Positions 11,340-35,913 of a stretch of 64,000 nucleotides of DNA are shown here, one piece after another. Position 1 is the stretch's first letter, and each line of letters starts with the position of its first letter. The translations under genes were made by a program, and so were the position numbers. Source of the DNA: Candidatus Aegiribacteria sp. (lineage in GTDB: Bacteria; Fermentibacterota; Fermentibacteria; Fermentibacterales; JCC-6); contig JAWOBF010000061.1 of the NCBI GenBank assembly GCA_046498225.1, forward strand, positions 3,709 through 67,708, written 5' to 3'. The notes under the pieces were generated by a model, which saw nothing but the letters and a program-made list of their open reading frames with translations, was not told the origin of the DNA and searched no databases.

Positions 11340-13566
11340 TATTCCCTGTTTCCTCCCCCACGCCGCCCATCTCCCTTTCCAGCAGTTCCAGCTCCAGGCG
11401 GGCTTCCCGGTTCGCCGGGTCCTCCTCAAGCACCCGGAAGTATTCCTCCCTGGCTTCCTCCGGCCGGCCCTCGGCCGCGAAAAGCCTCGCCAGCAGAAGC
11501 CTGAGGGCGGGCCTTTCGCCGGTCCACCAGGTGAAGCTCTCGATATCCTCCGCCAGGTGGTCCAGCCGGTAGCCGCCCTGAATATACAGCTGGATGAGGT
11601 CATTGAGCATACTTTCGGTAACCTCGGCGGGACCGCCGCCCGCAAGGCCCAGAAGGAGCGCGCCCGAAAGCATGTCAGGGTCGTTGATCTCTATGCCCCT
11701 GTCCGCCAGGTAGCCTGACCATCCCCTCATGTCCTCCAGGATGGCCTTTGCCTGGTCGTAGCCGCTGTAGCAGTGGGCGTACCGTTCCACGAACAGGAAC
11801 CGCCTGGGAAGGTCAGCAGCCTCCCGGTACCCCCGGCCGTAGACGCGGAGGGAGGGTCCCTGGTGGAGGAGAACGAGTGAATCCAGCGTTTCGGGCCTGT
11901 AATGAAGCTGCCGGGCTACGGCCTGTTCCGGTTCTTCCCGCAGCCCCGCGAGGTAGAGCAGGCCGCTGAAGCTACTGTCCAGCAGGAAATCCGCCTGATA
12001 CACCAGCAGCCGGCAGTCCCGGTCCCTCATGAAGGCCACCAGGCTGTCCTCCGGCATGAACATGGTCTCGGCGAACCTGATTATTGTCTCCCTGTTGTAT
12101 TCGCTCTCGAAGAAGGTATGGGTTACTACCGGACGCTCCGCGTAGGCCGAAATCAGGCCGGATATGTGCCAGTAGCTCAGAACGGCCCGATCGCTTTCCG
12201 TTTCCCTGTCCAGCCAGTCCAGGAAGGAATCAAGCTCACGGTCGCCCAGCATTGAGGATGAATCCTCGAACCGCAGTCCGACCCTGTCGATTGCTCCCGC
12301 TATGACCCCGGGAAACAGGGATTGAAGGATGATGGCCAGGGCCACGGGGACTATCAGCCATCTCCTTCTGAAGGTTGCGGCGATAACCGGAACGAGAGCC
12401 ACGGCCAGGAACACCATCAGCCTGTCGAAGAAGAGGTAGCCGGCCAGCGAGAGGGGAAGGAACCAGAAAATGAGCCTGTTCCCCCTCTCCCTGAAGAACG
12501 CCCTTGCTCCCGGCAGGGCCGCCAGGAGGGGCACTCCGAAGAGCAGAAGGAACTGGGCCGGCGAGGGGCTGGTGTAACCGGGCACCCAGAACAGCCTGGC
12601 GTCCTCCGACAGAAGCAGGGGGTTCTCCGGATGGCTGAAGAGGAACCTCAGCTTTGCCGCTATCACCGATGACACGTGACCGGTGGCGGCCTGACCGATG
12701 AAAGAGGATGCCGCGGCCAGGACAGTGGCGCACAGCGGGTACCAGACCGGTCTGAACCGGGGCAGGAGCAGAAACACCGCCATGACCGTGGCCGGGCTTA
12801 TCAGCGCCCCGTCATGCCTCATGTGGGGCAGAAGGACGGAAGCGGCTATCTGGGCGGAGGCCAGGGATATCCTGGCGGACAGGGGTACGTCTCCCCTTCG
12901 CCAGTTCCTCCAAAACAGATAAAGAAGCAGGAAGAACGAGATGAAGGCTGTGACCTTCCACGCGGCAAGTGACATGAACAGGACAACTCCCGCGGATACG
13001 CCGAATCTCATGGCGGCCCGTTCATCCTCTTCGGCAAGTGTCCTCTCGGTAAGCCATCCCAGAGCCACGAGCATGGGCAGGGCGACGGTCTCCCTGTAGA
13101 GGGACCCGCCCCTTGCCCTGAGGATGGCCGGAAGAAGAAAGGCGTAAAGACCGGAAGCCAGAAGGGAGGTCCATTTTTCGAATCCTGCCCCGCGCATCCA
13201 CAGGTAGAGCATGGGGATAACCAGCAGAGGGAAGAAAAGCGCGAAAGCCCTGATGAAACCATCGAAGTCCCCCCCCGCTATCCTGTGGATACCTCCGGCC
13301 ACGTACTCCTCGAATATGGAGTTGTGAAAGGTATTCATGCCCCGCGGATGCATAACCAGGGTATCGACTTCAGGAATATGGCCGGTCATGGAGAACATTT
13401 TCGCGTAACGGTAGGCCTGGGTGGTTTCGGCCTGCATCCTTTTCGGAGGGGGAAGCACGGAGGAGGCGACCAGGCTCCGGAAGAGGAATCCCGCCGCAAC
13501 CGCCGCGGCGAGAAGCAGGGCTGTTGTCAGAACACCGGTTCTACGGAACATCGCTGGGCTTTCCAT
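11323..13566 (-). CDS. large polytopic membrane protein, candidate GT-C glycosyltransferase (STT3/PglB-like) with a C-terminal TPR-like region
   Basis: About 12 hydrophobic segments are followed by a soluble domain. SYWHISGLISAYAERPVVTHTF aligns by eye to SWWDYGYQI...TLVDNNT of STT3/AglB, but with the Asp replaced. The C-terminal RLLLARLFAAEGRPEEAREEYFRVLEEDPANREARLELELL is TPR-like. Confidence 0.55.
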   Translation of the reverse strand: MESPAMFRRTGVLTTALLLAAAVAAGFLFRSLVASSVLPPPKRMQAETTQAYRYAKMFSMTGHIPEVDTLVMHPRGMNTFHNSIFEEYVAGGIHRIAGGDFDGFIRAFALFFPLLVIPMLYLWMRGAGFEKWTSLLASGLYAFLLPAILRARGGSLYRETVALPMLVALGWLTERTLAEEDERAAMRFGVSAGVVLFMSLAAWKVTAFISFFLLLYLFWRNWRRGDVPLSARISLASAQIAASVLLPHMRHDGALISPATVMAVFLLLPRFRPVWYPLCATVLAAASSFIGQAATGHVSSVIAAKLRFLFSHPENPLLLSEDARLFWVPGYTSPSPAQFLLLFGVPLLAALPGARAFFRERGNRLIFWFLPLSLAGYLFFDRLMVFLAVALVPVIAATFRRRWLIVPVALAIILQSLFPGVIAGAIDRVGLRFEDSSSMLGDRELDSFLDWLDRETESDRAVLSYWHISGLISAYAERPVVTHTFFESEYNRETIIRFAETMFMPEDSLVAFMRDRDCRLLVYQADFLLDSSFSGLLYLAGLREEPEQAVARQLHYRPETLDSLVLLHQGPSLRVYGRGYREAADLPRRFLFVERYAHCYSGYDQAKAILEDMRGWSGYLADRGIEINDPDMLSGALLLGLAGGGPAEVTESMLNDLIQLYIQGGYRLDHLAEDIESFTWWTGERPALRLLLARLFAAEGRPEEAREEYFRVLEEDPANREARLELELLEREMGGVGEETGNNAEIR

Positions 13567-13593: not shown

Positions 13594-14175
13594 TCAGGAC
13601 AGGAGCCCTGAGTGCTGCTTCGCTATAATGACCGACATTATCTTGAGGGTTTCCACCGGACCGCTTCCGCCGATGGCCACGGATTCAATTGAGGGCCATC
13701 CGTAGCGGTTCAGCAGCTGCTCCATCTCCTCCACCGATGCTATGGAGGGAAGGTCCCTCTTGTTGAACTGCAGTACCGAGGGCACGTCGGATAGTTTCAG
13801 GCCGTAGGAATCCAGGTTGCTCTCCAGGTCCTCCATACTGTCGACGTTGGCGTCCATTCTCTCGGTCTGGCTGTCCGCGACGAAGATTATTCCGTCCACG
13901 CCATCAAGGATGACCTTTCTGCTCAGAGAGTAGTAGGCCTGTCCGGGAACCGAATAGAGGTGGAGCCTTACCCTGTCGTTCCCGATGGACGCGAAGTTGA
14001 CGGGAAGGAAGTCGAAGAATACGGTCCGCTCTCCCCTGGTGCACAGCGTAACCAGTCTTCCCCTGTGTTCCGGGGCTATCAGATCCCGTATCCTCCTGAG
14101 ATTCGTGGTCTTTCCCGAAAGACCGGGACCGTAGTAGACTATCTTGTAGGCAACTTCATTTACTGATCTGTGCAT
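13594..14175 (-). CDS. MglA-family Ras-like small GTPase (paralog 1)
   Basis: Motifs KIVYYGPGLSGKTTNL (P-loop), RTVFFDFLP, LYSVPGQ and FNKRD are the MglA hallmarks. Confidence 0.85.
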   Translation of the reverse strand: MHRSVNEVAYKIVYYGPGLSGKTTNLRRIRDLIAPEHRGRLVTLCTRGERTVFFDFLPVNFASIGNDRVRLHLYSVPGQAYYSLSRKVILDGVDGIIFVADSQTERMDANVDSMEDLESNLDSYGLKLSDVPSVLQFNKRDLPSIASVEEMEQLLNRYGWPSIESVAIGGSGPVETLKIMSVIIAKQHSGLLS

Positions 14176-14204: not shown

Positions 14205-15554
14205 TCAGAGTATATAATTACCATCTTCTCTTCGATCAGCAAGGTCAAGAAGGATACTCTTCGCCGAGGTCCCGGATATGCTCACCGGACCCCTGACCAG
14301 ATCGGGGGCTCCGAACAGCTGCTGGTCCAGCAGGTAGCTCAGTACCGGCCTGAGCCTTCTTGCGCCTATGTCGTCGGTCTCCTGGTTGAGATGGCTGGCT
14401 ACCCTGGCCACTTCACGGGAGGCCCCCCGGCTGAGCCTCAGTTTCACACCGTCCGCTTCCAGAAGCGACGTGTACTGCTTCAGAAGTGAATTCTCCGGTT
14501 CGGTGAGGATCCTTAAAAGGTCTTCCTCCGAAAGGGGATCCAGCTCCACCCTCATGGGAAACCTGCCCTGCAGCTCCGGAATGAGGTCGGAGGGGCTCGA
14601 CCCGTTGAAGGCTCCCGCGGCTATGAACAGGATATGGTCCGTCACCACCGGACCGTACCTTGTCTGAACAGCGCAGCCCTCCACGATGGGAAGCAGGTCC
14701 CTCTGAACGCCGGCCCTGGAAACTTCCGGGCCCTTGCTCTCGCTGATCCCGATTATCTTGTCTATCTCGTCGATGAAGATGATACCCTCCTCCTGGGCCA
14801 GCGTCAGCCCCCTGGAAATGTGGTCGCTGCCCTCGAGGAGCCTGCCCATCTCCTCTTCTCGAAGCCTCTCCCTGGCCTCGGAGACCGGAAGCTCGGTCCG
14901 CTTCCTCCTGCCGCCCATCATCTTCTGCATGAGTTTCTTGAGGTTTTCTCCCGCGGCATTGTCGAAACCGGCGCCGGGCATCAGGGGCATTATCTCCATG
15001 TTTGGAAGCTGGTCGGGAAGTATCATCTCCACCCTGGTGTCCTCCAGGGAACCGCTTTCCAGCATTCTCTTCAGTTCCGCGTCGGATATGGTTTCGTAAC
15101 CGGAACTCTTCAGCGCTGCGACGAGTTTTCCCGTCACCGCCTGCTCGACATGCTCCGCCCGGTCCTTTCTTTCTCTCTCCGCTTCAATGTTCACCGCCTG
15201 CCGCACCAGCGACCGCACCATGGATTCCACGTCCCTGCCCACGTATCCGGTTTCGGTGTACTTGGTGGCCTCAACCTTCACGAAGGGGGCGCCGGTGAGA
15301 TTAGCCAGCCTTCTGGCTATCTCCGTCTTCCCTATGCCGGTGGGCCCCATCATTATCAGATTGCTGGGATATATCTCGGGCCTGATATCGTCCGGCGCCA
15401 GCCGACGCCGGTACCTGTTGCGAAGGGCTATGGCTACCGACCGCTTTGCAGCGGCCTGGCCAACCACATGGCGGTCAAGCCACTTCACTGTCTCCGACGG
15501 GGTGTAGTCTCCCTTGTCGTTCATCCGCGCGGGTTCCCTGTTCATATCAGCCAA
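14205..15554 (-). CDS. hslU: ATP-dependent protease ATPase subunit HslU
   Basis: Motifs TPSETVKWLDRHVVGQAAAKRSVAIALRNRYRR, MMGPTGIGKTEIARRLA and GIIFIDEIDKI. Confidence 0.95.
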   Translation of the reverse strand: MADMNREPARMNDKGDYTPSETVKWLDRHVVGQAAAKRSVAIALRNRYRRRLAPDDIRPEIYPSNLIMMGPTGIGKTEIARRLANLTGAPFVKVEATKYTETGYVGRDVESMVRSLVRQAVNIEAERERKDRAEHVEQAVTGKLVAALKSSGYETISDAELKRMLESGSLEDTRVEMILPDQLPNMEIMPLMPGAGFDNAAGENLKKLMQKMMGGRRKRTELPVSEARERLREEEMGRLLEGSDHISRGLTLAQEEGIIFIDEIDKIIGISESKGPEVSRAGVQRDLLPIVEGCAVQTRYGPVVTDHILFIAAGAFNGSSPSDLIPELQGRFPMRVELDPLSEEDLLRILTEPENSLLKQYTSLLEADGVKLRLSRGASREVARVASHLNQETDDIGARRLRPVLSYLLDQQLFGAPDLVRGPVSISGTSAKSILLDLADRREDGNYIL

Positions 15555-16086
15555 GCTCCTCCAGCTGTATGTCGCCTCCGGTGTAGATGCATATTCCGGA
15601 GGCTATCCTGATGCTCTCGAACGCGATCCTGGCCGGTCCCATCCTGGTGTGCCCGTCCAGGGCCCGCGCAGCGGCGATGGCGTATGGATGACCTGAACCT
15701 ACAGCCACTATTCCATCTTCCGCCTCGACTATCTCGCCGGAGCCGCCTATGAGCAGGGCATGGTCGCGGTCCACCGCGGCCAGCAGTGCTTCCAGCTCCC
15801 TCAGGTACTTGTCGGCCCGCCATTCGCGGGCAAGGTCAACCGCCGCCCTGGGAAGGTTGCCCCTGGCTGTCTCCAGTTTCTCCTCCAGCCTCTCCACCAG
15901 GGCGAAGGCGTCGGCGCCGGTTCCGGAGAATCCCACCAGGACGGTGTCGGAATAGAGCCTTCTTATTTTCCTGGCGGTGCTCTTCAGGACGGTATCCCCC
16001 AGGGTGACCTGGCCGTCCGCCGCCATGGCGGCCTTTCCATCCCTGACTATGCCCACTACGGTGGTCGACCGCAGTTCTGCCGTCAT
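15547..16086 (-). CDS. hslV: ATP-dependent protease subunit HslV
   Basis: STTVVGIVRDGKAAMAADGQVTLGDTVLKSTARKIRRLY. The ATG at 16086 forms an ATGA overlap with the upstream stop. I rejected the upstream 79 codons of the track ORF. Confidence 0.93.
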   Translation of the reverse strand: MTAELRSTTVVGIVRDGKAAMAADGQVTLGDTVLKSTARKIRRLYSDTVLVGFSGTGADAFALVERLEEKLETARGNLPRAAVDLAREWRADKYLRELEALLAAVDRDHALLIGGSGEIVEAEDGIVAVGSGHPYAIAAARALDGHTRMGPARIAFESIRIASGICIYTGGDIQLEELG

Positions 16087-19000
16087 TGGTCGCCCTCCAG
16101 CAGGTTGACCCAGGAATAGTCGCCCATACCCCTGCCGGGGTCGGGTACACCCGCGGCGTAGGCCTCCGGGTCCTCCAGGACCCGAGCCAGTGCGGAGGCC
16201 GACATGACTTCGCTCCGGTAGAGAGCGGCGTACATCATGCCGGGCCTTCCGCCCTTCGCCGCCATCCAGGCCAGGGCCTCCGGCGATACCCTGTTGCTCT
16301 CCGTGCGGAACCATCTTGTCCACGATACGGTCTCCTCGACAGGATCGTTCAGTATCCTCAGGGCCAGGTTTTCCACCACGCTGGCCTCCTGCGGGTCTTC
16401 CATGCTTCGGGAAAGAACGATACCCGAAGCGGCGGCCGATATCAGATGGCTCCGGGAGGAGAGCCTCAACATCTCTTCCATGATCCTGCCCGCTGTGGCC
16501 TGTTCATTCAGGTCCAGCCCGGAGACCGAGGATGGCTCCATGGATTCGAAGAGTATGGAAAGGCCCGTGTCCCGAATATTGATCCTGTATCCCAGCGGAG
16601 AGCTGTTCAGTATGGCGGCAAGGGAGGAATCCGCCATGGCCGCCAGGCCGGCGTAGGCCGGGTCCGCGCCGGGGTCCATCTCCTCCACTATCCTCCAGGC
16701 GCCTATGTAGTCGGAGAACAGGAGAGCGACCTCCACCCGCAGCCAGGCGAAGGCGGGGGAACCGTCGTCCAGGCTGTCGAAGAGCTGCCTGTACTCCAGC
16801 TCCTGCCGGTAGCCCAGGGTATTATCCGTGCCGGTCGCCAGGCTGGAGAGGTTCAGCGCCAGTCCCGCCAGTTCCTGGCTGTCCAGTCTCCTGGCGTTGT
16901 CCAGTGTCCGGTCGGCGATGGCCTGCAGTGTATCCGAGGCGGCAGCGGGACCGTGCATCCCGTCCACCAGTCTGGCGACTATCATGGCCCTGCGGGGAAG
17001 GACTTCGGCCCAGGCGTCGGGAAGGGTGGTGAAAAGCTCCTCCGACCTGTCGAGTACCATCTGGACGCTGTCCGGCCGGCCTCTGTCGATGTAGTGGTAG
17101 GCCAGTCTGTGATAGGCGGAAACGTAGTTCTTCAGCAGCTGCACCGCCTGGTCGCACTTGAATACGGATGGGTCCTCCACCCCGGTGAACCGGTAGTTTT
17201 CCATCAGCTCCCATCCCCTGGAGCCGTTGACGGCGTCCACCACCGGCCTGTCGGTCACTCGGAAAGCGATTCCCTCCATCATGTGGTAGGGTTCGAGGTA
17301 CTGTCTGCTCTCCGTCGCCACGGTTCCGGCGAAGTATATCTCCCTGCCGTGGATCGGCCTGTTCTTTATCATGTTCAGGAGCACCAGGTCCTGCATGCTC
17401 AGCACTCCCTGGCTGGACAGACCTTCGATTGGAATGGCCACGGCCATGGAGCCGTGGGTTACGGCCCACGGCCAGGGCTGGTCGAAGGTGGTCCTGAGTA
17501 TCTCGCCGTCCACCGGCGAATACTCGGGCATTCCGTACCTCTCCACGTGGAAGTGATGGGGGCCCCAGATATACACAGGCCGAAGCCGGTGTACAAGTCC
17601 GTGGTCGTCGAAATCCAGGAGCAGAGAATCCCTGTCCACCAGCTGCTGCACGTACCAGTTGGTGTTCATAAGGCTGAGGTTGCTGACAATCACGTCCCTG
17701 CGGACCCCCAGCACACCCTGGGCGAACCACAGGGGGAAGGTGTCGTTGTCGCCGTTGGTTATCAGAACGGCGTTCTCCGGGACGCTCTCCAGCAGATTTA
17801 TGCCGTAGTCGTGGGCGAAGTAGGAATTCGACCGGTCGCACCTGTGATGGTTCGCGGTGAACATCAGAAGAGGAATGGCAAGAGTGGCCCACGCCAGCCT
17901 GGACTTCTCGGACAGGAAGTCCCTGAAGACGGATACCAGGCCTATTCCGGAGAATATGGCGAACAGGGCGAAGGAGGCTCCGAAGAAGTAGTCCCTCTCC
18001 CTCACCTCCCCGGCCGGGGTTCCCTCCAGGCCTGTCTTGAAATTCAGTATGAAGAATATGAACAGTATGGATGACATCAGGAACAGAAAACCGAGGTATA
18101 GAAGCAGTTTCGGCCTCCTCATTCCCAGCACCACCAGTCCGTATATCGCCCCGAACAGGAGAATTATGCGCATCAGCATGGCCGCCGCCGGCCCGCCGGT
18201 GTCGCCCAGCAGCCGGTCCCATCCGCTGTCCACCCTTCCGGGCTGCCATGAGAGGTACTTCAGGTAGAGCCTGAGCTGGTGGTGGAAGGGCCCCTTCCGG
18301 TCCAGAATGGACGTCCTTCCGTACTGGTCCCTGGTGAACGCCTTCTCGAAGTTCTCCCATCTGCTTGAGTCGGTCTCGTTCACCTCCGGGTCCTGAACCG
18401 CCCGAATGGGCATGTACAGGTGAATGCTGAATGCCAGCACAACGAGGCCGAGTATGGTCAGTATGAACCAGGAGCGCTTCCAGATGTCGGTCTTCTTCCT
18501 GAAGGCGTAAATAATGTACATCAGGAGTATGGGGGGGCCGGTGACCAGCGGTACGCTGCCGTGGTTGGCAACCGCGAGTATTATCAGGTAGGAAATCAGA
18601 AGAAGGTACCTGGCCTCCCCCCAGCCGCCGTGGTCCTTCCACCCCTTCCTGTGCTTCCTCTCCGCGTACCTCTCTATCCAGCAGTCGAAGGACCACATTA
18701 TTATGAAAGTCAGCAGGAGGGCTGTGGCGTAGGTCTCCGTGGCGTTGCTGTTGCGCCATATTGAGTAGCTGAAGGTCGCTGTCAGTCCCGACAGCACCGA
18801 CATCGGCCTGTACCAGGCGGAAGTGAAGCCCATCCTCCTTCCCCACCGCTGCACGAGACGGACCAGGAGGCCGATGGTGGCGGCCCCGGCAAGGGCGCAC
18901 ATCAGGTTGACCCTGCTGGCCACTCCCGGCAGGAAGGAGAACACGATGGTGCTGAAGCGGCCGAGAAGAACGAACAGCGGGACGCCGGGCGGGTGCGGGA

Positions 19001-19160
19001 CCCCCGCGGTCCAGGATGCGGTTATGTACTCACCGCTGTCCCAGAAGCTGACGCTGGGCGCCAGTGTCAGAACGTAAGTGAGGAGCGCTGCGAGGGCCAC
19101 TGCGACCGCTATGGCCCTGTCGGTTCGAACACTTCTTGATTCAAGCTTCTTGTCAGTCAC
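16083..19160 (-). CDS. DUF2723 (TMEM260-like) large polytopic membrane protein, putative GT-C glycosyltransferase, with a long C-terminal soluble region
   Basis: The N-terminus LTLAPSVSFWDSGEYITASWTAGVPHPPGVPLFVLLGR is the DUF2723 signature. Many TM segments occupy the first ~480 aa, followed by ~540 aa of soluble sequence. GTG start. Confidence 0.8.
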   Translation of the reverse strand: MTDKKLESRSVRTDRAIAVAVALAALLTYVLTLAPSVSFWDSGEYITASWTAGVPHPPGVPLFVLLGRFSTIVFSFLPGVASRVNLMCALAGAATIGLLVRLVQRWGRRMGFTSAWYRPMSVLSGLTATFSYSIWRNSNATETYATALLLTFIIMWSFDCWIERYAERKHRKGWKDHGGWGEARYLLLISYLIILAVANHGSVPLVTGPPILLMYIIYAFRKKTDIWKRSWFILTILGLVVLAFSIHLYMPIRAVQDPEVNETDSSRWENFEKAFTRDQYGRTSILDRKGPFHHQLRLYLKYLSWQPGRVDSGWDRLLGDTGGPAAAMLMRIILLFGAIYGLVVLGMRRPKLLLYLGFLFLMSSILFIFFILNFKTGLEGTPAGEVRERDYFFGASFALFAIFSGIGLVSVFRDFLSEKSRLAWATLAIPLLMFTANHHRCDRSNSYFAHDYGINLLESVPENAVLITNGDNDTFPLWFAQGVLGVRRDVIVSNLSLMNTNWYVQQLVDRDSLLLDFDDHGLVHRLRPVYIWGPHHFHVERYGMPEYSPVDGEILRTTFDQPWPWAVTHGSMAVAIPIEGLSSQGVLSMQDLVLLNMIKNRPIHGREIYFAGTVATESRQYLEPYHMMEGIAFRVTDRPVVDAVNGSRGWELMENYRFTGVEDPSVFKCDQAVQLLKNYVSAYHRLAYHYIDRGRPDSVQMVLDRSEELFTTLPDAWAEVLPRRAMIVARLVDGMHGPAAASDTLQAIADRTLDNARRLDSQELAGLALNLSSLATGTDNTLGYRQELEYRQLFDSLDDGSPAFAWLRVEVALLFSDYIGAWRIVEEMDPGADPAYAGLAAMADSSLAAILNSSPLGYRINIRDTGLSILFESMEPSSVSGLDLNEQATAGRIMEEMLRLSSRSHLISAAASGIVLSRSMEDPQEASVVENLALRILNDPVEETVSWTRWFRTESNRVSPEALAWMAAKGGRPGMMYAALYRSEVMSASALARVLEDPEAYAAGVPDPGRGMGDYSWVNLLEGDQ

Positions 19161-20059
19161 TCTTTCCCCCTGGGATGTGCTTTGTTGTAGGCCTCTCTAA
19201 GCCGTTCCATCGTGAGATGAGTATATATCTGTGTAGTGGAGAGACTGCTGTGGCCCAGCATGTCCTGTACCGCCCTGAGGTCGGCCCCGTTGTCAAGAAG
19301 ATGGGTCGCGAAACTGTGCCGGAACGTATGCGGTGTGGCACCCGCGGCCCTGGCAGCCTTTCTCACTCCGCATGCAACAATACGCCGGATATCCCTGGGG
19401 TCAAGCTTGCGTCCTCTGACACTGACGAAAACAGTCCCGGGATCGGCTGCCCCCTCGGGGACCAGTTCCACCCTTCTCTCCATCCATCTGTCCAGTGAAC
19501 GGCAGGTTGGTTCCGGCAGGGGAACTATTCTCTCCCTGTTGCCCTTTCCGGTGACCGAAACCTGCCTTTCGGCCGTATCCAGCCCGGAAAGGGTCACCGA
19601 AACCGTTTCCGCCGCCCTCAGCCCGGCGCCGTAGAGTATCTCCACGATGGCCCGGTTCCGTATGCCCAGTACGGTGGAGAGATCGTAGCTTTCCATCACC
19701 TGTCTCACCTCCGCCACGCTCAGGAAACCCGGCAGACGCCTGGAACTCTTCGGCATCGCTACCAGCCTGGCGGGGTTGCGGCCGGCCCGCCGGGTCTCCA
19801 GCAGCCAGTTGCCGAAGGTCCGCAGGGTCGAGAGTTCGCGGGAGAGGGAGGCGGAATCCATGCCCCTTGAGGTCTCCCTTCTGAGGAAACCCCTTATCTC
19901 GTTGACGGTGAACCCTGAAAGGAGATCTTCCGAATGCTGGTATTCAAGAAACCTGCGCAGGTCGGCCCTGTACGCCCGAATGGTGTTCTCCGAGAATTTC
20001 CTTCCGTGCCTGAGGTCGCTGCAGAAATCCTCTATCAGTTCTCGATCTTCTTCTTGCAT
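19157..20059 (-). CDS. xerC: tyrosine recombinase XerC/XerD
   Basis: SAM-like N-terminal domain (NTIRAYRADLRRFLEY) and catalytic region HTFRHSFATHLLDNGADLRAVQDMLGHSSLSTTQIYTH. I chose the ATG at 20059; the upstream part of the track ORF lies inside topA. Confidence 0.9.
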   Translation of the reverse strand: MQEEDRELIEDFCSDLRHGRKFSENTIRAYRADLRRFLEYQHSEDLLSGFTVNEIRGFLRRETSRGMDSASLSRELSTLRTFGNWLLETRRAGRNPARLVAMPKSSRRLPGFLSVAEVRQVMESYDLSTVLGIRNRAIVEILYGAGLRAAETVSVTLSGLDTAERQVSVTGKGNRERIVPLPEPTCRSLDRWMERRVELVPEGAADPGTVFVSVRGRKLDPRDIRRIVACGVRKAARAAGATPHTFRHSFATHLLDNGADLRAVQDMLGHSSLSTTQIYTHLTMERLREAYNKAHPRGKE

Positions 20060-22239
20060 CCGGGACACCAGATACCTTTCCTCTTCTCCTCCAGCACCGG
20101 AAAACCGCACCGCGGGCAGGTCCTGGCCACAGGTCTGTTCCATAGAGCGTACCTGCATGAGGGGTACCTGCTGCAGCCGTAGAATGTCCTTCCCTTTCTG
20201 GTCCTCTTTTCCACCAGCTCTCCTCCGCACCCCTCCTCCGGACAGGGAACACCGGTGGGGACCGACTCCGTATGCTTGCATCCGGGATGGTTCTCGCAGC
20301 CGAGGTATCGGCCGTACCTGCCGGACTTGACCAGCAGCTTTCCTCCGCAGAGAGGGCAGGTCCTTCCGGATAACTCCGTCTCCCCCTCCTCCTCCAGCGG
20401 GGTCGAGTACCTGCATTTCGGAAATGCCGTACATGCTTTGAACTTTCCGTACTTTCCCCAGCGTATGACCATGGGAGCGCCGCATTCGGGGCACTGCTCC
20501 CCCGTTTCCTCGAAGAGCTGCTCCTTTAAGCTGTCAGTGCTCCTCATCGCATCCTTCAGCGATGATTCCAGAGGAACGCTGAGCTGCTCCAGGACACCCG
20601 AGTAGGTTTCATCCCCTCCGGCTATGGAATCCAGAAGGTCCTCCATCCTGGCGGTGAATCCAACCTCGAATATGTGGGGGAACATCTTCACCAGTATCCT
20701 CACGGTGGTGGTCCCCAGTTCGGTTGGTTTCAGGAACCTTCCCTCCTTTTCCACGTAATCTCTCTGCCTTATGGTCTTTATGGTGCTGACATAGGTGGAG
20801 GGCCTTCCTATGCCCGCCTTCTTCATCTCGGATACCAGCCTCGCCTCCGTGAACCTTGCGGGCGGGGCCGTGAACTTCTGCTCCTTCCGGAGGTCCACCA
20901 GGGACACTCCCCCCTTCCTGAGTTCGGGAAGGCTGTCCGATGTCCTGACGAAGGCCGGATCGACCCTGGAGAACCCGGGCTGGATGAGTTCCTCCCCGGA
21001 GGCGGTCATCTCGAGTTCCCCCGCGGTGACGGTAACTGCGGTGGTCCGGACCCTCGCGTCCCGAACCTGCGTCGCTACGAAACGATTCCATATCAGCCGG
21101 TAGAGGGACAGCTGGGCGGAAGACAGATGTGGTTTGAGGCTGTCCGGCGTCAGATCGACATTCACCGGCCTGATGGCCTCGTGGGCATCCTGGGAGCCCT
21201 TGGAACTCCTGTACCTCCTTACCCCGGGAGCGAGCATTTCCTCCCCGTATTCCCTCTTCACGAACTCCCTGCAGCTGTTGAGGCTGTCCGGGCTCATCCG
21301 GACCGAATCCGTACGCATGTACGTTATCAGGCCCGTCCTCTCCCCTTTGCCGATGGAGATACCCTCGTAAAGCTGCTGGGCCAGGGACATGGTCCTTCCC
21401 GGTGAATACGAGAGCCTGCTGGAAGCGGCCTGCTGAAGGGTGCTGGTGATGAAGGGAGGGGGCGGTTTCACCGATCTTTCCCTGGACCTTATGGAGGAGA
21501 TCTCCCATTTATCGGACAGTTCATTCATCCTGAGGGAAACGGCTTCGGCCTCCTTCTCGCTGCAGGGGGGTTTTCCCGGTTTGCAGCAGGGTTTTCCGTC
21601 CATCCGGGTCAGGGTCGCGGCGAACTCCCCCTTTCCCTGGCGCACAAGGGCTTCCATGACCCAGTATTCCACGGGGACGAAGGCTGTTATGTCGTCCTCC
21701 CGTTCCTGGATCATTCTCAGGGCCACCGACTGAACCCTTCCGGCGCTCTTTCCCTTTCCCATTATCCTCTGCAGCCAGGACGAGACCTTGTAGCCCACAA
21801 GCCTGTCCATAACCCTTCTTGCCTGCTGGGCGTCGACCAGCTGCATGTCTATCATGCTGGGTTTCTTAAGAGAACGGAGGACCGTCTCCCTGGTTATTGC
21901 GTTGAACCGGAGCCTCTTGAAAGTGACCCCCTTCCTCTCCAGTATCTGTGAGAGGTGCCAGCAGATAGCCTCTCCCTCCCTGTCGGGGTCCGCGGCGAGG
22001 TATATCCTGGAGAAGTTGCGTGACTTCTTCTTGAGGTCTTCCACAGTTTTGCGTTTCTCCGGCAGGATGGTATACGAAGGTTTGAAGCCGTTTTCCTCGT
22101 CCACGCCCATGTAGTTCCGCGGCAGGTCCCTGACGTGGCCGTTCGAGGCTGTTATCTCGTATTCGTCACCCAGGTAGCCCCTGAGGCTGCGGGCCTTGGC
22201 CGGTGACTCCAGTATTACCAGATACTCTTTCTTGCTCAT
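20035..22239 (-). CDS. topA: DNA topoisomerase I
   Basis: Toprim N-terminus (LVILESPAKARSL), GLITYMRTDS around the catalytic Tyr, and four C-terminal CxxC...CxxC zinc ribbons. Confidence 0.95.
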   Translation of the reverse strand: MSKKEYLVILESPAKARSLRGYLGDEYEITASNGHVRDLPRNYMGVDEENGFKPSYTILPEKRKTVEDLKKKSRNFSRIYLAADPDREGEAICWHLSQILERKGVTFKRLRFNAITRETVLRSLKKPSMIDMQLVDAQQARRVMDRLVGYKVSSWLQRIMGKGKSAGRVQSVALRMIQEREDDITAFVPVEYWVMEALVRQGKGEFAATLTRMDGKPCCKPGKPPCSEKEAEAVSLRMNELSDKWEISSIRSRERSVKPPPPFITSTLQQAASSRLSYSPGRTMSLAQQLYEGISIGKGERTGLITYMRTDSVRMSPDSLNSCREFVKREYGEEMLAPGVRRYRSSKGSQDAHEAIRPVNVDLTPDSLKPHLSSAQLSLYRLIWNRFVATQVRDARVRTTAVTVTAGELEMTASGEELIQPGFSRVDPAFVRTSDSLPELRKGGVSLVDLRKEQKFTAPPARFTEARLVSEMKKAGIGRPSTYVSTIKTIRQRDYVEKEGRFLKPTELGTTTVRILVKMFPHIFEVGFTARMEDLLDSIAGGDETYSGVLEQLSVPLESSLKDAMRSTDSLKEQLFEETGEQCPECGAPMVIRWGKYGKFKACTAFPKCRYSTPLEEEGETELSGRTCPLCGGKLLVKSGRYGRYLGCENHPGCKHTESVPTGVPCPEEGCGGELVEKRTRKGRTFYGCSRYPSCRYALWNRPVARTCPRCGFPVLEEKRKGIWCPGCKKKIEN

Positions 22240-22305: not shown

Positions 22306-23874
22306 TCAGTCTGTATCCGTCATCCACTGGAAGACGCTGCCGGTAACCAGTTCCGACGTTTCGGGGATCACCGCCTGTCTCCTCTGGAGGTAGTAGGGGC
22401 TGGGGGATGTGGCCAGTACCCTGAAACTGTCGGAGATGAAGGAGAACATGTTAGGTGCGTAGTACTGGTTCTCGCGGTAGTAGAGAACCATCTGGTCGAC
22501 TATCGTGGAATCCAGCAGCAGGCCTATTCCGCCGATCAGGGCGGCCCTCTTCTCCGCCGGCTCGGGATGGAGTATGGACATCACCAGTATATCGTACCCG
22601 TCCTCCGTTCGAATGAGGGAAAATCTCTCCATCTCTATGGAATGGAATGCCGAGAGCTGTCCCAGCGGTTCTGCGAGGAACTGAAGGGATTCGGAAAGAA
22701 CCTCCACTTCCCGGACCGGGGAATCCGTGAGGCCCCTGGGAACCTGGTAGTCATCCGTGGCCAGTGAATCCGGCAGCGTGAGGCTCCTCAGTGATATGAA
22801 AACGGGGGGAGGCAACGAATCCGCAACCAGAGAGTCGGAGGCGGTCTCCCCGGTCCCGGTCGTATCGGGGCCGGCTATCCCGCTCTCCTGTCCCTCACCG
22901 GCGGAAGACGTATCCGGGAGCGCCGCCGGCACTGCACCGGCATCCTGTTCTGACCCGCCGAAAATATCAAAGGGATCAAGGAGCAGGAAGACTGCCAGCA
23001 GGGCGACCAGGACTGTTATGGCAATCAGCGTCGGAGATAGACCGGGGAATCGTCCGGAGCTGCCGGACTTCCTTCTCGCCGGAGCTGAAGGCCGCTCCCT
23101 GGCGGGAATCTCCCGAGCCGTCTCCTCCGGTGGTTTTCTCTCGGGCACCGAATCAAGTGGACGGTCCACCGTTCTGCCCAGGGAGGCGCACTTTTCGCAG
23201 ACGTGTTCCTTCCTGTCGTAGCATCCGGCGCAGGTGAGTTCTCCGCATGTTGTGCAGGGAACCAGTTTCTCCCCGGTAGTGGGTGTCCTTCCGCAGATGT
23301 GGCATCTCTGCACGGTAAGGACCTCCTCCGCGGCTGAAGTGACCACGAGGGGTTCGTCATCATCGGAAGCGGAAGCCCCCGAAACGAAATCGTCGTCCAT
23401 GAGCGAACTCGGAGAATCAACTATGTCGCCCAGGCCGTCATTCCGGCCTTCCCCGTCCGGCAGGACGGTTCGCTCCTCCCTCCCCTCCGCCGGGTACTCG
23501 TCATCCGTTCCAGAATATATTCCCTGCTGCAGGGAATCCTCCTCCTCCTCCTCCTCCTCCGGCTCTTCCTCCTCAGGCGGCGCGGGCGGAGGCGTTGTGT
23601 CCGCCACCGGGGCTTTTTTCCCGGTTTCTTCCGCGGGTGTCTTGTAGTACTTGGGCAGAAGGTCGACGAAAGGGTACATCCTGTCCTGAAGTATTCTGCC
23701 CTGCTCCATCTCGACGTTCTCTCTGAGAATGACCGGGGAATTCTCCACCTTTTCGGTGGCCTCCTCCGTACTCATGCCAAGCTCGCTGACCAGCAGGTCG
23801 ATGACCTTCTGCTTCTCGTCATCCCTGCTGAGCCTGACCAGGAGGAGGTCAACCATTCTGCCTTCTTCGTTCAA
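22306..23874 (-). CDS. novel multidomain membrane protein: L7/L12 C-terminal-domain-like N-terminus, acidic linker, 4x CxxC zinc-ribbon region, one TM helix, extracytoplasmic C-terminal domain
   Basis: Residues ~7-75 (VDLLLVRLSRDDEKQKVIDLLVSELGMSTEEATEKVENSPVILRENVEMEQGRILQDRM) align by eye to the L7/L12 CTD ([49 protein letters not shown]). Also present: PEEEEPEEEEEEED, CHIC..CTTC..CAGC..CEKC, and TM helix LSPTLIAITVLVALLAVFLLL. It starts 1 nt after the mglA stop. Confidence 0.6.
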   Translation of the reverse strand: MNEEGRMVDLLLVRLSRDDEKQKVIDLLVSELGMSTEEATEKVENSPVILRENVEMEQGRILQDRMYPFVDLLPKYYKTPAEETGKKAPVADTTPPPAPPEEEEPEEEEEEEDSLQQGIYSGTDDEYPAEGREERTVLPDGEGRNDGLGDIVDSPSSLMDDDFVSGASASDDDEPLVVTSAAEEVLTVQRCHICGRTPTTGEKLVPCTTCGELTCAGCYDRKEHVCEKCASLGRTVDRPLDSVPERKPPEETAREIPARERPSAPARRKSGSSGRFPGLSPTLIAITVLVALLAVFLLLDPFDIFGGSEQDAGAVPAALPDTSSAGEGQESGIAGPDTTGTGETASDSLVADSLPPPVFISLRSLTLPDSLATDDYQVPRGLTDSPVREVEVLSESLQFLAEPLGQLSAFHSIEMERFSLIRTEDGYDILVMSILHPEPAEKRAALIGGIGLLLDSTIVDQMVLYYRENQYYAPNMFSFISDSFRVLATSPSPYYLQRRQAVIPETSELVTGSVFQWMTDTD

Positions 23875-23875
23875 T

Positions 23876-24484
23876 TCAGCCTCGTTTCTCGTTCAGTGCA
23901 AGAGAAAACTGCCTGTGCAGACGTCTCATGACTATTCTGCTGGCTTTCCTGAGCGTCTCGAAGACTCCGGTGCCGTCAATCGCCACTGATTCGATGCACG
24001 GTACCCGCTCCAGCCCGAGCTTCTGTCTTATGGTATCCGTGGGCAGGATGTCGGGAAGGTCTCTCTTGTTTGCCTGAAGAACCAGGCTCAGGCCCTTGCG
24101 CTTCGTGTCCCTGAGGTTCTCCTTCAGGTCCCGCAGACTGGCGATGTTGGCTTCCATCCTGGCCCTCTGGGAATCGGCCACGAAGATGATACCGTCAACA
24201 CCCTGCAGTATCAGCTGCCTGCTGTCTGTGTACATGGCCTGTCCGGGTACGCTGTAGAGATGCAGCCTTACCTTGAAACCATATATGGTGCCTGTATTTA
24301 TGGGCAGGAAATCGAAGAAAAGGGTTCGCTCGTTGCCGGTGGCCAGGGATATGAGCTTGCCCCTGTCACTGGACGGGATCTGACTGTGTATGAACTTGAC
24401 ATTGGTGGTCTTGCCCGAAAGTCCCGGACCGGCATAGACAAGCTTGCAATCAATCTCCCTGGAACTGTAGCTAACTGTGGCCAT
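23876..24484 (-). CDS. mglA: MglA-family Ras-like small GTPase (paralog 2, closest to Myxococcus MglA)
   Basis: MATVSYSSREIDCKLVYAGPGLSGKTTN...RTLFFDFLP...LYSVPGQ...GIIFVADSQ...ANKRD is near-colinear with the MglA sequence as I recall it ([28 protein letters not shown]...). Confidence 0.9.
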   Translation of the reverse strand: MATVSYSSREIDCKLVYAGPGLSGKTTNVKFIHSQIPSSDRGKLISLATGNERTLFFDFLPINTGTIYGFKVRLHLYSVPGQAMYTDSRQLILQGVDGIIFVADSQRARMEANIASLRDLKENLRDTKRKGLSLVLQANKRDLPDILPTDTIRQKLGLERVPCIESVAIDGTGVFETLRKASRIVMRRLHRQFSLALNEKRG

Positions 24485-32427: not shown

Positions 32428-33813
32428 TCATCTGTTGTACCTGCTGATGAATTCCTCCACCTCGGGCACCCCTCCCTGGAGTATCAGGTAGCCGTTGTGA
32501 GGCTCCCTCTCCGTTATCTCTCCGGCTATGGGATTGCACATTATCTCCCTGACCTCTTCCCGGTCACCTGTCTGGCCAAGGGCCCAGCACAGCTTAACGT
32601 ACGCCACCTCCGGAAGCATGTTGGCGGCGGGTACCACTCCCAGGTCCATTATGTCCCTGCCGGTATCGTAGACGAACATCTGCACGTACCCCCACAGGGT
32701 CTGCACCGTCATGTAGACGTGGACCCCCCGGTCGCACGCTCTCTTCAGGGAGGGATAGAGGGGCTTGTTAACGTGACCCAGTCCGGTGCCGGCTATCACT
32801 ATTCCCCTGTAGCCGTTGTCCACCAGTGAATCGATTATGTCCGGCTGCATGTTGGGGTAGTAGTAGACGATGGAGACCCTGGGGTCGAAGGCGGTGTTTA
32901 TCTTCACCTTCCGGTCCCCGCGCCGCTTCCTGTAGTCCTCATTGAGGATGGTTATACTGTCCTTCCTGACCATTGCCAGGGGAATGTCGCCTATGGTCCT
33001 GAAGGTGGATCTGTAGGAAGAGTGCATCTTCCTCACCCTGGTGCCCCTGTGCAGGAGGTCGTACTGGTCGCTGGTGGGACCGAACATGCAAACCATCACC
33101 TCCGCTATGTCGCTCCTGGCCGCGGCGTAGGTGGCGTTCATCAGGTTTATGGCGGCGTCGCTGGAGGGTCTGTCGCTTGACCGCTGCGAGCCCACCATCA
33201 CTATGGGGACCGGAGGGTCCTGGACCATGAACGATAGAATCGCGGCGGTATGGTGCATGGTGTCCGTCCCGTGACCTATGACGATGCCGTCCACTCCGTT
33301 CTCGATCTCCCTGCCGATGGCCTCCGCCGTCCCCTTCCACTGCTCCGGGCCCATGTTCTCGCTGAACACTCCGTACAGCTTCTCGGTCTTCAGGTTGCAT
33401 ATGTCCGCCAGTTCCGGCACCGAGCCGTAAAGTTCTCCCGGTGAGAACGCGGGAATGACGGCGCCGGTCCTGTAATCGAGCCTGGACGCTATGGTGCCGC
33501 CGGTCCCGAACAGTTTGACGTCGGGTTTGCCGGGGTCGAAGGGAAACTCCTTCTCCGGTATCTTGTAATGGGCCTCTATTCTGCCCTTCTCCTTAATGGA
33601 CTGGACGGTGTCCACGTCTATTCCCACGTTGTAGCCGTTATGGATCTTGAGCACTATGTGGTAATCGTCCGCGGTCTCCGAGCGAGGCAGGATGACGCCC
33701 TTGAATCCCCCCCTGGTGGATTTTATCTCCACGTCCGACCACACGCCCACATCGTATTTCTTCAGACATTCGAGGCCTCTGCCCCTGTATCCCTTGTAAC
33801 GGTCGGAAGACAG
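32428..33813 (-). CDS. gatD: archaeal-type Glu-tRNA(Gln) amidotransferase subunit D (GatD)
   Basis: GatD N-terminal beta domain (VEIKSTRGGFKGVILPRSETADDYHIVLKIHNGYNVGI) plus a type-I asparaginase domain (GTGGTIASRLDYRTGAV, HGTDTMHHTAA). I extended the start to CTG 33813, which lies 7 nt downstream of GGAGGTG; the track start at GTG 33750 would truncate the conserved N-terminus. Confidence 0.88.
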   Translation of the reverse strand: MSSDRYKGYRGRGLECLKKYDVGVWSDVEIKSTRGGFKGVILPRSETADDYHIVLKIHNGYNVGIDVDTVQSIKEKGRIEAHYKIPEKEFPFDPGKPDVKLFGTGGTIASRLDYRTGAVIPAFSPGELYGSVPELADICNLKTEKLYGVFSENMGPEQWKGTAEAIGREIENGVDGIVIGHGTDTMHHTAAILSFMVQDPPVPIVMVGSQRSSDRPSSDAAINLMNATYAAARSDIAEVMVCMFGPTSDQYDLLHRGTRVRKMHSSYRSTFRTIGDIPLAMVRKDSITILNEDYRKRRGDRKVKINTAFDPRVSIVYYYPNMQPDIIDSLVDNGYRGIVIAGTGLGHVNKPLYPSLKRACDRGVHVYMTVQTLWGYVQMFVYDTGRDIMDLGVVPAANMLPEVAYVKLCWALGQTGDREEVREIMCNPIAGEITEREPHNGYLILQGGVPEVEEFISRYNR

Positions 33814-33820
33814 CTGGGAT

Positions 33821-33827
33821 CACCTCC
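33821..33827 (-). promoter_or_regulatory. Shine-Dalgarno GGAGGTG positioned 7 nt upstream of the CTG start of gatD
   Basis: The minus strand reads GGAGGTG-ATCCCAG-CTG TCT TCC GAC. An in-frame TGA lies within ...GGTGAT..., so no ATG, GTG or TTG is available between that stop and 33750. Confidence 0.6.
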
Positions 33828-33841
33828 CTATTCTTCTGCGG

Positions 33842-35788
33842 TCATGCAGGATCGGCCCTGTCGGCCGAAAGCAGTTCTCGCACCACTTCACGAACCAGGG
33901 CGCCTTCGAGCATTCCGTCGAACTTCCGCCTCACCAGGCCTGTAAGGTAGCGCTCCATCCGTTCGGGGTCCGGGTCCGCCTGTCCGACCCGCAGGATGAT
34001 CTTTCTGGCGGTTTCCTCCAGCTCCTGCCGGTCGGGAATGCTCACGTCCTTCACCGCCTCTTCCACCGGAAGGTCACGGCTTCCGCATATCCGCTCCAGA
34101 ACCGCGGCGGCGGCCTCTATGGGAAGCCCGGCGCCGCTCACCCTGGAAAGCACGTTCAGCAGAGTCTCGCCGGGTACGCTTTCCACGTCGGCTTTTTTCC
34201 TGATGTGGTTCAGGGTGCTGAGGAAGAAATGCATCAACGTCACCGGGGTGTAATCCGACATCTCCAGCGCCCTGTCGTAGAGGTCCCGGTCTTCCGAAAC
34301 GCTCATCTGACGAGCCGACTCCCCGGGCACTCCCGCGGCAGCATACCTCTCCGCCCTCTCCCACGGTCTTTCCGGAAGACGGGAGGCAACCTTTTCCATC
34401 AGCTCAGCGTTGATGGGGATCGGGGGCAGGTCGGTGTCCGGGTACATCCTGTTCGGACCCGGCAGTATGCGCTCGAAGCCCGTGGTCCCGTCCGGAAAAG
34501 ACTGTCTGGTCTCGTTTATGACACCGTCCAGGGCCTCCTCCGCCCTTATGACTATCTCATCCACGGCGGTCTTCAGGTCCTCGCCGGACCCCCAGACCAC
34601 TACGATGGCGTCCTCCGGTCCGCTGGAGGTGAGTTTTCTTATCCTCTCCCATTCCGCGGAAGAGAAGCTCTCGCCCTGGAAACCGTCGTGCACCATGTTG
34701 GGCATCCGGTCAAGGCAGGCTATCACCCTCACCCGGTCGGATATCTCATCCGCGAATGTCTTTCCCGGCTGGGTGGGCGTGGCCGGCAGTCCTGCATACC
34801 CCCTGAGGGACACTGCACTAATCTGCAGGCCGGCGTGCAGGGCCTCGGCCGCGGGTGGATATGCCGACCCGGACAGTTCCCGGGTAATGTCGGCGGCTTT
34901 CCACCTGAAATTCTCCTTATCGACGCCCTTTCGAGCCAGACTGTTCATTATTTCAAGAAGGGATACCTGTCTGTAGGCTTCGTTATGGACCAGCAGCGGT
35001 ATCTCGGGTATTCTGGAAACACCCTTTATCTCCACTCTCCGTCCTCCGGTGACGGAGACGTTCACGTCCTGCCTGGCGGCCCCGATACCTCTTCGCACCT
35101 TCCCGGACGACCTGGCGAGCCGGCTGAGTATGCGGCACACCCGCGCCACCTCCTGCGGCGTCCTCATCTGTGGCGCGGTCACCGTCTCTATGAGAGGTAT
35201 TCCCAGCCTGTCGGTGAGGTATACCCGTCTGTGCCCTTCATCGCGCACCTCCCTGCATGCGTCCTCCTCCAGGCCAAGCTGGATGATATCTATTCTCCTG
35301 TCCCCGAATGGGATCCAGCCGTCAACACCCAGTATAGTGGTCCTCTGAAAACCGGCCGGTATGGATCCGTCGAGGTACTGCTTCCTCTGTATGTGTATCT
35401 CGCTGACAAGTTTGCAGTTGAGAAGCATGGTTATTTCCAGGGCGATCTCAAGGGCCTGCTGGTTCAGCTCGAAGGGTGGGGTGTCATCGATCTCGTAGGT
35501 GCAAATCGTACGCTTGTTTATCTGATAGATTATGTTTTTTCTGGTCTTGAACTCCATGAGCGCCGTGCCGTCGTATTCACCCAGTTCCGAGAGGGTCGGT
35601 CTCATGTGGCGGAGCACCCGGGCGTCGAACCTGTCCGAGTACGGCAGGACGGGACACCTGCAGAAGAGCTTCTTTTCCGTATCCAGCTGCTGGTGTATCT
35701 CCAGGCCGCTTCGAAGACCGATGTCCCTGTAATCGGAACCGGTGGTCTCGTCCATGCTTCTGATCAAATTGGGGCGGTCTCCTTTCAT
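33842..35788 (-). CDS. gatE: archaeal-type Glu-tRNA(Gln) amidotransferase subunit E (GatE)
   Basis: GLRSGLEIHQQLDTEKKLFCRCP, EIDDTPP, LDGSIPAGFQRT, LGLEEDA, DRLGIPLIE and RQDVNVSV are colinear with GatE as I recall it, including the insertion domain absent from GatB. The start could instead be the ATG at 35755 (MDETTGSDY). Confidence 0.88.
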   Translation of the reverse strand: MKGDRPNLIRSMDETTGSDYRDIGLRSGLEIHQQLDTEKKLFCRCPVLPYSDRFDARVLRHMRPTLSELGEYDGTALMEFKTRKNIIYQINKRTICTYEIDDTPPFELNQQALEIALEITMLLNCKLVSEIHIQRKQYLDGSIPAGFQRTTILGVDGWIPFGDRRIDIIQLGLEEDACREVRDEGHRRVYLTDRLGIPLIETVTAPQMRTPQEVARVCRILSRLARSSGKVRRGIGAARQDVNVSVTGGRRVEIKGVSRIPEIPLLVHNEAYRQVSLLEIMNSLARKGVDKENFRWKAADITRELSGSAYPPAAEALHAGLQISAVSLRGYAGLPATPTQPGKTFADEISDRVRVIACLDRMPNMVHDGFQGESFSSAEWERIRKLTSSGPEDAIVVVWGSGEDLKTAVDEIVIRAEEALDGVINETRQSFPDGTTGFERILPGPNRMYPDTDLPPIPINAELMEKVASRLPERPWERAERYAAAGVPGESARQMSVSEDRDLYDRALEMSDYTPVTLMHFFLSTLNHIRKKADVESVPGETLLNVLSRVSGAGLPIEAAAAVLERICGSRDLPVEEAVKDVSIPDRQELEETARKIILRVGQADPDPERMERYLTGLVRRKFDGMLEGALVREVVRELLSADRADPA

Positions 35789-35913
35789 CGAGCCCGGAAA
35801 TGAACCATAAAAAAAAGGAAATCCTGCGTGTCATGAGGAGCAGAACCATCCTGAGGACGGCTTTCAATTATATTTCATGAGGACCGGTGAGACAATACTT
35901 GCCCGGGGCGGAA

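Follow-up and report, generated by a model that had tools for sequence, protein, structure and literature searches.

The Glu-tRNA(Gln) amidotransferase GatDE has been treated as an archaea-only enzyme and 'archaeal signature protein' in reviews from 2008 to 2022, a view that a sequence-only reading of the DNA described here had also taken as its starting point. GatDE of Methanothermobacter thermautotrophicus reads the A1:U72 pair of archaeal tRNA-Gln and excludes tRNA-Glu by means of the D-loop; bacterial GatCAB recognises U1:A72, a pair that tRNA-Gln and tRNA-Asn share in GatCAB-using bacteria (PMC2330236). Elements specific to GatE are a short basic loop by the 1:72 pair and a tail motif, GXXAXGX, which has been implicated in rejecting Asp-tRNA(Asn); in GatB their places are taken by a 3-10 turn and the tail motif KXGKXK (PMC2811023). 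Here we report a gatE-gatD gene pair that is resident in a bacterial genome. It lies on a contig of a metagenome-assembled genome (MAG) of Candidatus Aegiribacteria sp. (Fermentibacterota), of which a stretch of 64,000 nt, hereafter called the window, was analysed; all coordinates are window positions.

By every computed criterion, the two proteins are genuine GatD and GatE. Both genes are intact, full-length open reading frames (ORFs), and they are arranged as follows, in the direction of transcription:

35867..35895, minus strand: match to a sigma-70-like promoter (TTGTCT, 17-nt spacer, TATAAT; 10 of 12 positions; a consensus match only)
33842..35788, minus strand: gatE, 648 aa, ATG start; kinase/transamidase subunit of Glu-tRNA(Gln) amidotransferase, with a cradle domain, an insertion resembling aspartyl-tRNA synthetase (AspRS), a putative helical domain and a putative, divergent YqeY-like tail
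33751..33841, minus strand: spacer of 91 nt between the co-directional genes gatE and gatD
32428..33750, minus strand: gatD, 440 aa, GTG start; glutaminase (ammonia-generating) subunit

The sequence-only reading had described the pair as co-directional with short spacers, which agrees with a common strand and a distance of 91 nt. A scan of the spacer found no terminator-like site on the minus strand between the two genes, so gatE-gatD reads as a bicistronic operon. The promoter-like match sits in the 125-nt gap that separates the gene of a sigma-54 regulator from gatE. Four promoter-like sites were present in the scanned region, compared with 1.7 +/- 1.4 in shuffled sequences, and the match upstream of gatE is suggestive of a promoter. 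In NCBI's own call the start of gatE is placed 7 codons further downstream, which yields a protein of 641 aa.

The assignment of both proteins was clear from curated profile models. GatD scored 520.3 bits with TIGR02153 and 516.5 bits with NF003217 (equivalog cut-offs 324 and 310, respectively), and also passed the subfamily model TIGR00519 (403 bits; cut-off 260.5). GatE scored 506 bits with NF003107 (equivalog cut-off 456) and 434 bits with TIGR00134 (equivalog cut-off 319.55), while its scores with six GatB models were all far below the cut-offs, the best being 154.5 bits (cut-off 338). GatD matched three Pfam domains, namely GatD_N (PF18195, 50.3 bits), Asparaginase (PF00710, 190.1 bits) and Asparaginase_C (PF17763, 117.1 bits), which bears out the earlier description of a GatD N-terminal domain fused to an asparaginase domain. 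In GatE, the match to Pfam GatB_N was stretched over residues 28-465 on a model of 277 positions; the extra length represents the GatE-specific insertion, whose presence was likewise claimed by the sequence-only reading and is also evident from the end-to-end alignment with solved GatE chains. The C-terminus of GatE matched Pfam GatB_Yqey only weakly (21.3 bits, under the cut-off of 27), and the tail nonetheless aligned to the end of the solved GatE chains. The motifs quoted in that reading were all found in place, GLEIHQQLDT and KLFCRCP at residues 28-37 and 40-46 of GatE, and TGGTIAS and HGTDTM at residues 83-89 and 160-165 of GatD.

Comparison with solved structures gave the same result. 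GatE aligned over its full length with PDB chains 1zq1_C (E = 5e-100) and 2d6f_C (E = 1.4e-91), whereas GatB chains matched over the cradle core only, with E-values of 1e-26 or weaker. GatD aligned with 2d6f_A (E = 1e-126) and 1zq1_A (E = 5e-119); the best free asparaginase reached 5e-45. GatE was modelled with AlphaFold on the basis of 68 homologues; the model had a mean predicted local distance difference test (pLDDT) score of 87 and a predicted template modelling (TM) score (pTM) of 0.83, with a C-terminus that was predicted to be helical (block pLDDT mostly 74-95). In a Foldseek search with this model the best targets were 1zq1_C and 2d6f (TM-score on target 0.83 and 0.79), followed by GatB chains. 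AspRS structures were also among the matches, and this may be attributed to the insertion domain of the model.

The catalytic residues of both subunits are conserved. H32, E174 and E201 of GatE correspond to H15, E157 and E184 of the M. thermautotrophicus enzyme and were invariant in 113 aligned sequences of the clade described below; T86, T162, D163 and K241 of GatD correspond to T101, T177, D178 and K254 and were invariant in 64 aligned loci. Such invariance argues for purifying selection on the known chemistry. The basic loop of GatE beside the 1:72 pair of the tRNA reads GKVRRG (residues 229-234) in the window, compared with RVKRG and KVKRG in the solved enzymes, and VRTG or VRVG in many other bacterial members.

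Among the closest described systems are the archaeal enzymes of M. thermautotrophicus (PDB 2D6F) and Pyrococcus abyssi (PDB 1ZQ1). They share with the window pair the subunits, the domain order, the GatD N-terminal domain, the AspRS-like insertion, probably the helical and tail region, all catalytic residues (T/T/D/K in GatD, H/E/E in GatE), and the short basic loop that GatE has in place of the 3-10 turn of GatB. They differ from it in that the host of the window pair is a bacterium, that the motif GXXAXGX is absent, and that the tail falls below the Pfam threshold; sequence identity to the window proteins is 47-52% for GatD and 33-34% for GatE, whereas the two archaeal enzymes are 53-58% identical to each other. 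Bacterial GatCAB catalyses the same overall reaction, and GatB has the cradle fold and the catalytic His/Glu/Glu residues in common with GatE. However, GatCAB is a heterotrimer, its glutaminase GatA is an amidase unrelated to GatD, and GatB differs from the window GatE by the absence of an AspRS-like insertion, by the 3-10 turn and by the KXGKXK tail motif. Type I L-asparaginases have the N- and C-terminal asparaginase domains and the catalytic residues in common with GatD, which is set apart from them by the additional GatD_N domain, the higher scores with GatD models and the neighbouring gatE. A placement of the two proteins within a GatB or asparaginase clade, which the sequence-only reading had named as one of two cases that would overturn it, fails on profile scores, PDB alignments, trees and fold alike.

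By analogy with the archaeal enzymes, we consider it probable (roughly 0.8) that gatE and gatD encode a working heterodimeric GatDE, a tRNA-dependent Glu-tRNA(Gln) amidotransferase. Going by homology to the solved archaeal enzyme, a glutamyl-tRNA synthetase of the non-discriminating type (ND-GluRS) would load glutamate onto tRNA-Gln. GatD would then hydrolyse glutamine or asparagine at its asparaginase-type Thr-Thr-Asp-Lys site and release ammonia, and GatE would hold the acceptor end of Glu-tRNA(Gln), phosphorylate the gamma-carboxyl group at its His/Glu/Glu Mg-ATP site, and amidate the activated intermediate with the channelled ammonia, which would yield Gln-tRNA(Gln). The adjacency of gatE and gatD is conserved across phyla, which lends indirect support to a holoenzyme formed by the two subunits.

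The host of the gene pair is bacterial. The GatE of the window has an identical (100%) counterpart at NCBI, the protein 'GatE [Candidatus Aegiribacteria sp.]' (P0001), which is encoded on a 74-kb contig of a MAG. The window also encodes enzyme I of the phosphotransferase system, HPr, HprK, HPF, a sigma-54 response regulator and its histidine kinase, DNA polymerase I with a 5'-3' exonuclease domain, ComEC, a heptosyltransferase, bacterial topoisomerase I (TopA), MutS, a XerC/D-type recombinase, a sigma factor of the extracytoplasmic function (ECF) type and an MsbA-like ABC exporter. Of the flanking genes named in the sequence-only reading, hprK, hpf, the sigma-54 regulator, polA and the ECF sigma factor were recovered as such; the putative hslU matched only as an AAA_2/AAA-domain protein.

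Because the source is a metagenome-assembled genome, an archaeal fragment might have been mis-assembled or mis-binned into a bacterial contig. This explanation is effectively refuted. Bacterial genes lie on both sides of the pair on one contig, and a block of 13 genes around gatDE (from a glycosyltransferase gene to orf440) has the same order in five other Fermentibacteria MAGs (L002, L003, L005, L006 and L007), which come from different studies; two short contigs (L001 and L004) carry part of the block. The gene order common to the five MAGs excludes a chimeric join and shows that gatDE has been inherited vertically within Fermentibacterota, and homologues are also found on chromosome-scale bacterial records (see below). 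The composition of the pair is indistinguishable from that of neighbouring genes: when 45 genes were ranked by how closely their codon usage resembles that of the remaining window, gatE came 4th and gatD 19th; the GC z-scores were -0.1 (gatE) and -0.4 (gatD); and one third of equal-sized segments had a tetranucleotide profile further from that of the contig than the gatDE region. A recent genomic island was rejected, since codon usage, GC content and tetranucleotide content are all typical of the contig. The sequence-only reading had judged the composition by eye and had noted that it would fit an established acquisition rather than a recent island or an assembly artefact; the computed values and the conserved gene block support it on each of these points.

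Far from being a peculiarity of this genome, the window pair belongs to a bacterial clade that is very widespread. A scan of a genome collection returned 475 relatives, and all counts of loci given here refer to the best 80 of these. Bacteria account for 78 of these closest loci, under at least 14 different group labels that mostly denote distinct phyla: Acidobacteriota (21 loci), Fermentibacterota, Bacteroidota, Ignavibacteria, Planctomycetota, Deltaproteobacteria/Myxococcota, Krumholzibacteriota, Zixibacteria, Gemmatimonadota, Calditrichota, Fibrobacterota, Latescibacterota, Cloacimonadota, and one bin labelled Thermotogae. Three of the closest loci are located on chromosome-scale records (CP070685.1, CP070674.1 and OW818676.1). 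In almost all bacterial loci with both genes, gatE precedes gatD on the same strand. The remaining two loci (L043 and L056) are labelled 'archaeon', and here gatD and gatE lie on opposite strands in divergent orientation. The host of L056 is archaeal, as shown by a TiaS-like gene and a SecY of archaeal type, and close relatives of the two loci are named Thermoplasmata or Thermoplasmatota (e.g. proteins P0290 and P0293). When 1.84 billion representatives were searched exhaustively, GatD of the bacterial type formed essentially one cluster at 50% identity; the next representatives were 53% and then at most 48% identical. The annotation pipelines of NCBI and JGI already label these bacterial proteins GatD and GatE.

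When the flanking ORFs of the 80 loci were clustered, no family other than gatE and gatD recurred outside a single lineage, so there is no conserved link of gatDE to GluRS or tRNA genes in these neighbourhoods. Apparent GatE-GatD fusions in four Acidobacteriota loci (ORFs of 900-1170 aa) were discarded; in no stop-to-stop ORF do the two proteins share a frame, and the long ORFs are out-of-frame upstream extensions in high-GC DNA. A separate case is P0122, from a 12.8-kb contig of a Logan assembly, which is a single chain of 943 aa in which the GatE cradle and insertion (approximately residues 1-480) lead straight into a complete GatD (residues 500-937). It lacks both the helical and the tail domain of GatE, falls inside the bacterial-type GatD clade, and represents either a real fusion or a frameshift or assembly artefact.

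Phylogenetic analysis was based on neighbour-joining trees of GatD and GatE with 100 bootstrap replicates. In the GatD tree, bootstrap support was 100% for a single clade of all loci and four representatives. A protein from a Sigynarchaeota (Asgard) archaeon is found in the sister group of this clade (71% support), and outside the clade archaea account for every representative with an organism name (Thermococcus, Bathyarchaeia, Nitrososphaerota, Ranarchaeia, Desulfurococcaceae, and a classical GatD of Thermoplasmata). In the GatE tree, for which the two solved euryarchaeal enzymes served as root, the entire set again formed one clade with 100% bootstrap support and a long stem; Thermoplasmatota sequences occupied several basal branches, and most bacterial sequences were nested above them (62-73% support). 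Mean identity between bacterial phyla was 69% for GatD and 46% for GatE, compared with 69% and 44% between the bacteria and L043/L056, and 47% and 32-33% between the bacteria and the two solved euryarchaeal enzymes; M. thermautotrophicus and P. abyssi are 58% (GatD) and 53% (GatE) identical to each other. The Thermoplasmatota enzymes (L043, L056, P0290 and P0293) hence belong to the same clade and are as close to the bacterial enzymes as bacterial phyla are to one another. In L043 and L056 the motif GXXAXGX is missing as well, and they differ from the bacterial enzymes by their archaeal hosts and the divergent arrangement of gatD and gatE. Other Thermoplasmata have a classical GatD, which is 45% identical to the GatD of the window.

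The occurrence of one clade both in many uncultured bacterial phyla and in some Thermoplasmatota suggests at least one old transfer between domains, followed by spread between bacterial phyla. An alternative would be that GatDE is ancestral in Bacteria, i.e. that it descended vertically from LUCA, the last universal common ancestor, and was lost from most cultured lineages, with no acquisition from Archaea. The occurrence of the clade in many deep bacterial phyla and the long stem that separates it from classical euryarchaeal GatE would fit such a history, which we nevertheless regard as very improbable. The identity of GatD between bacterial phyla (69%) exceeds that between two euryarchaeal orders (58%) and equals that to the Thermoplasmatota members; the phyla are intermixed in the GatE tree, where proteins with different phylum labels reach 90% identity (96% for GatD); archaeal sequences are placed inside or at the base of the clade; and the nearest outside group includes an Asgard archaeon. 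The high identity between phyla, the intermixing and the placement of the archaeal sequences look like transfer and spread rather than vertical descent over 2-3 billion years. As to the direction of the transfer between domains, the basal archaeal branches together with the archaeal outgroups somewhat favour an archaeal origin, judging from the sequences at hand; the classical type carried by some Thermoplasmata would fit the less favoured alternative, a transfer from a bacterium to Thermoplasmatota.

The comparison of clade members yielded several further observations. GatD and GatE of L027 (Gemmatimonas), L034 (Latescibacterota), and L028 and L033 (both labelled 'bacterium') are nearly identical despite different phylum labels, which would be due either to a very recent transfer or to wrong labels of the bins. 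In the case of proteins P0297 and P0310, a GatE with the label 'Thermoplasmata archaeon', encoded on a contig of 5.16 Mb that is unusually large for this group, falls into a well-supported subclade with a GatE labelled 'Bacteroidetes', so one of the two taxonomic labels is doubtful. Across the clade, GatD is far more conserved than GatE, though the genes would have been transferred together as neighbours, and within GatE the tRNA-binding tail varies most.

Several observations weigh against the reading of the pair as a working Glu-tRNA(Gln) amidotransferase of the archaeal kind. The tRNA-Gln genes found near gatDE (in three loci, L021, L068 and L043, none of them from Fermentibacteria) have the U1:A72 pair in deltaproteobacterial L021 and Bacteroidales L068, and not the A1:U72 pair that is read by archaeal GatDE. 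In the tail of GatE, the window reads ERMERYLTG in the place of GMGAMGP in M. thermautotrophicus, and the motif GXXAXGX is missing throughout the bacterial and Thermoplasmatota clade, being most degenerate in Fermentibacteria; together with a tail that stays under the Pfam cut-off, this suggests that substrate discrimination may differ from that of the archaeal model enzyme. Neither a gene for ND-GluRS (gltX) nor gatCAB, glnS or asnS was present in the 64-kb window or in the 20-kb flanks of the 80 loci. The trees, moreover, are distance-based, include few named archaeal sequences and have weak deep support, so that the transfer history can only be sketched. The motif GXXAXGX, for its part, is a reported trait of the model enzymes and lies outside the curated family definition, and its absence is the one departure of the clade from these enzymes.

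The archaeal L043 has a tRNA-Gln with A1:U72, and one enzyme clade thus appears to serve tRNAs with opposite first base pairs. The tRNA-Glu gene that adjoins tRNA-Gln in L021 has G1:C72. By extrapolation from the two other bacterial hosts, the tRNA-Gln that would be the substrate of the window GatDE is likely to have U1:A72. In L043, the gene for tRNA-Gln(CUG) is located approximately 200 nt from the start of gatD.

These features could also be read as a broadened or shifted tRNA specificity, in which bacterial-type GatDE also or instead amidates Asp-tRNA(Asn) and stands in for GatCAB as the only tRNA-dependent amidotransferase. The motif implicated in rejecting Asp-tRNA(Asn) is absent from the whole clade, and since tRNA-Gln and tRNA-Asn share U1:A72 in GatCAB users, an enzyme reading U1:A72 could see both. 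In addition, a phmmer search with GatE against all ORFs of at least 250 aa in the 80 loci (approximately 1.2 Mb of contigs that carry GatDE) recovered the 80 GatE proteins alone and no GatB paralogue near gatDE, but flanks of 20 kb that are free of gatB say almost nothing about whole genomes. The archaeal L043 and L056 are without the motif as well and presumably have ordinary Gln-specific enzymes, and the clade has exactly the active-site residues of the Glu-specific enzyme from archaea. We consider such a change of specificity unlikely, and a Glu-tRNA(Gln) amidotransferase remains the preferred reading. A screen of the flanks for motifs of aminoacyl-tRNA synthetases and amidases gave four candidates, two of which were CysRS- and TrpRS-like by eye and two low-complexity false positives; none of them appears to have a bearing on the charging of Gln or Asn tRNAs.

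A more far-reaching proposal, which we make tentatively and regard as possible rather than probable, is that a distinct GatDE subfamily has crossed between the domains and has been retuned to U1:A72, with a remodelled version of the tail that reads the D-loop, and that in Fermentibacterota and other uncultured phyla it has taken the place of GatCAB as the only route to Gln-tRNA(Gln) and, possibly, Asn-tRNA(Asn). If true, GatDE would no longer be an archaeal signature, and the clade would offer a natural experiment in how a tRNA-identity enzyme adapts after transfer between domains.

The restriction of GatDE to Archaea does not hold for this gene pair, which lies on a bacterial contig with conserved synteny and has 78 bacterial loci among its 80 closest. 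This restriction concerns the distribution of the enzyme and not the enzyme itself; the enzyme is conventional and is already named by annotation pipelines, and it is the domain of its host that is unexpected. A full-text literature search, whose coverage was incomplete (few subscription papers), found no published report of a bacterial GatDE. GatDE figures in arguments on the entry of glutamine into the genetic code and on what LUCA possessed. A conserved and, from its sequence, evidently functional GatDE that resides in a bacterial phylum, in a clade found in at least 14 labelled groups, undermines the status of a 'signature', and the residence of the pair in many bacterial phyla runs counter to a textbook generalisation that still stands. 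It indicates that parts of the translation machinery that depend on tRNA identity have also moved between domains, and raises the questions of how GatE copes with a reversed first base pair, whether GatDE coexists with GatCAB or replaces it, and in which direction it was transferred. Bacteria of the Fibrobacteres-Chlorobi-Bacteroidetes (FCB) superphylum have been reported to carry archaeal-type genes such as those for archaeal ether-lipid synthesis (PMC7852524), and bacterial GatDE adds to such reports.

Some features apart from gatDE are also worth recording. In the archaeal locus L056, an ORF for an archaeal isoleucyl-tRNA synthetase (15202-20121 of that locus, minus strand) is 1639 aa long and, through a C-terminal extension, exceeds the span matched by isoleucine-tRNA ligase models by approximately 630 residues. 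The only RNA gene in the window is that of tRNA-Gly(CCC). The window encodes two paralogous MglA/Arf-like small GTPases (13594-14175 and 23876-24484, both on the minus strand), which both have the motif GPGLSGKTTN, and each adjoins a large ORF without a Pfam match (11323-13566, minus strand, 747 aa; 22306-23874, minus strand, 522 aa). A protein of 1025 aa (16083-19160, minus strand) carries at its N-terminus a TMEM260-like protein O-mannosyltransferase domain (PF11028, 124 bits), here in a bacterial genome. The longest ORFs of the XerC/D-type recombinase (19157-20494, minus strand) and of topoisomerase I (20035-22239, minus strand) overlap by approximately 460 nt; as it is the upstream end of the recombinase ORF that overlaps the 3' part of topA, the true start of the recombinase is probably well downstream of the first start codon.

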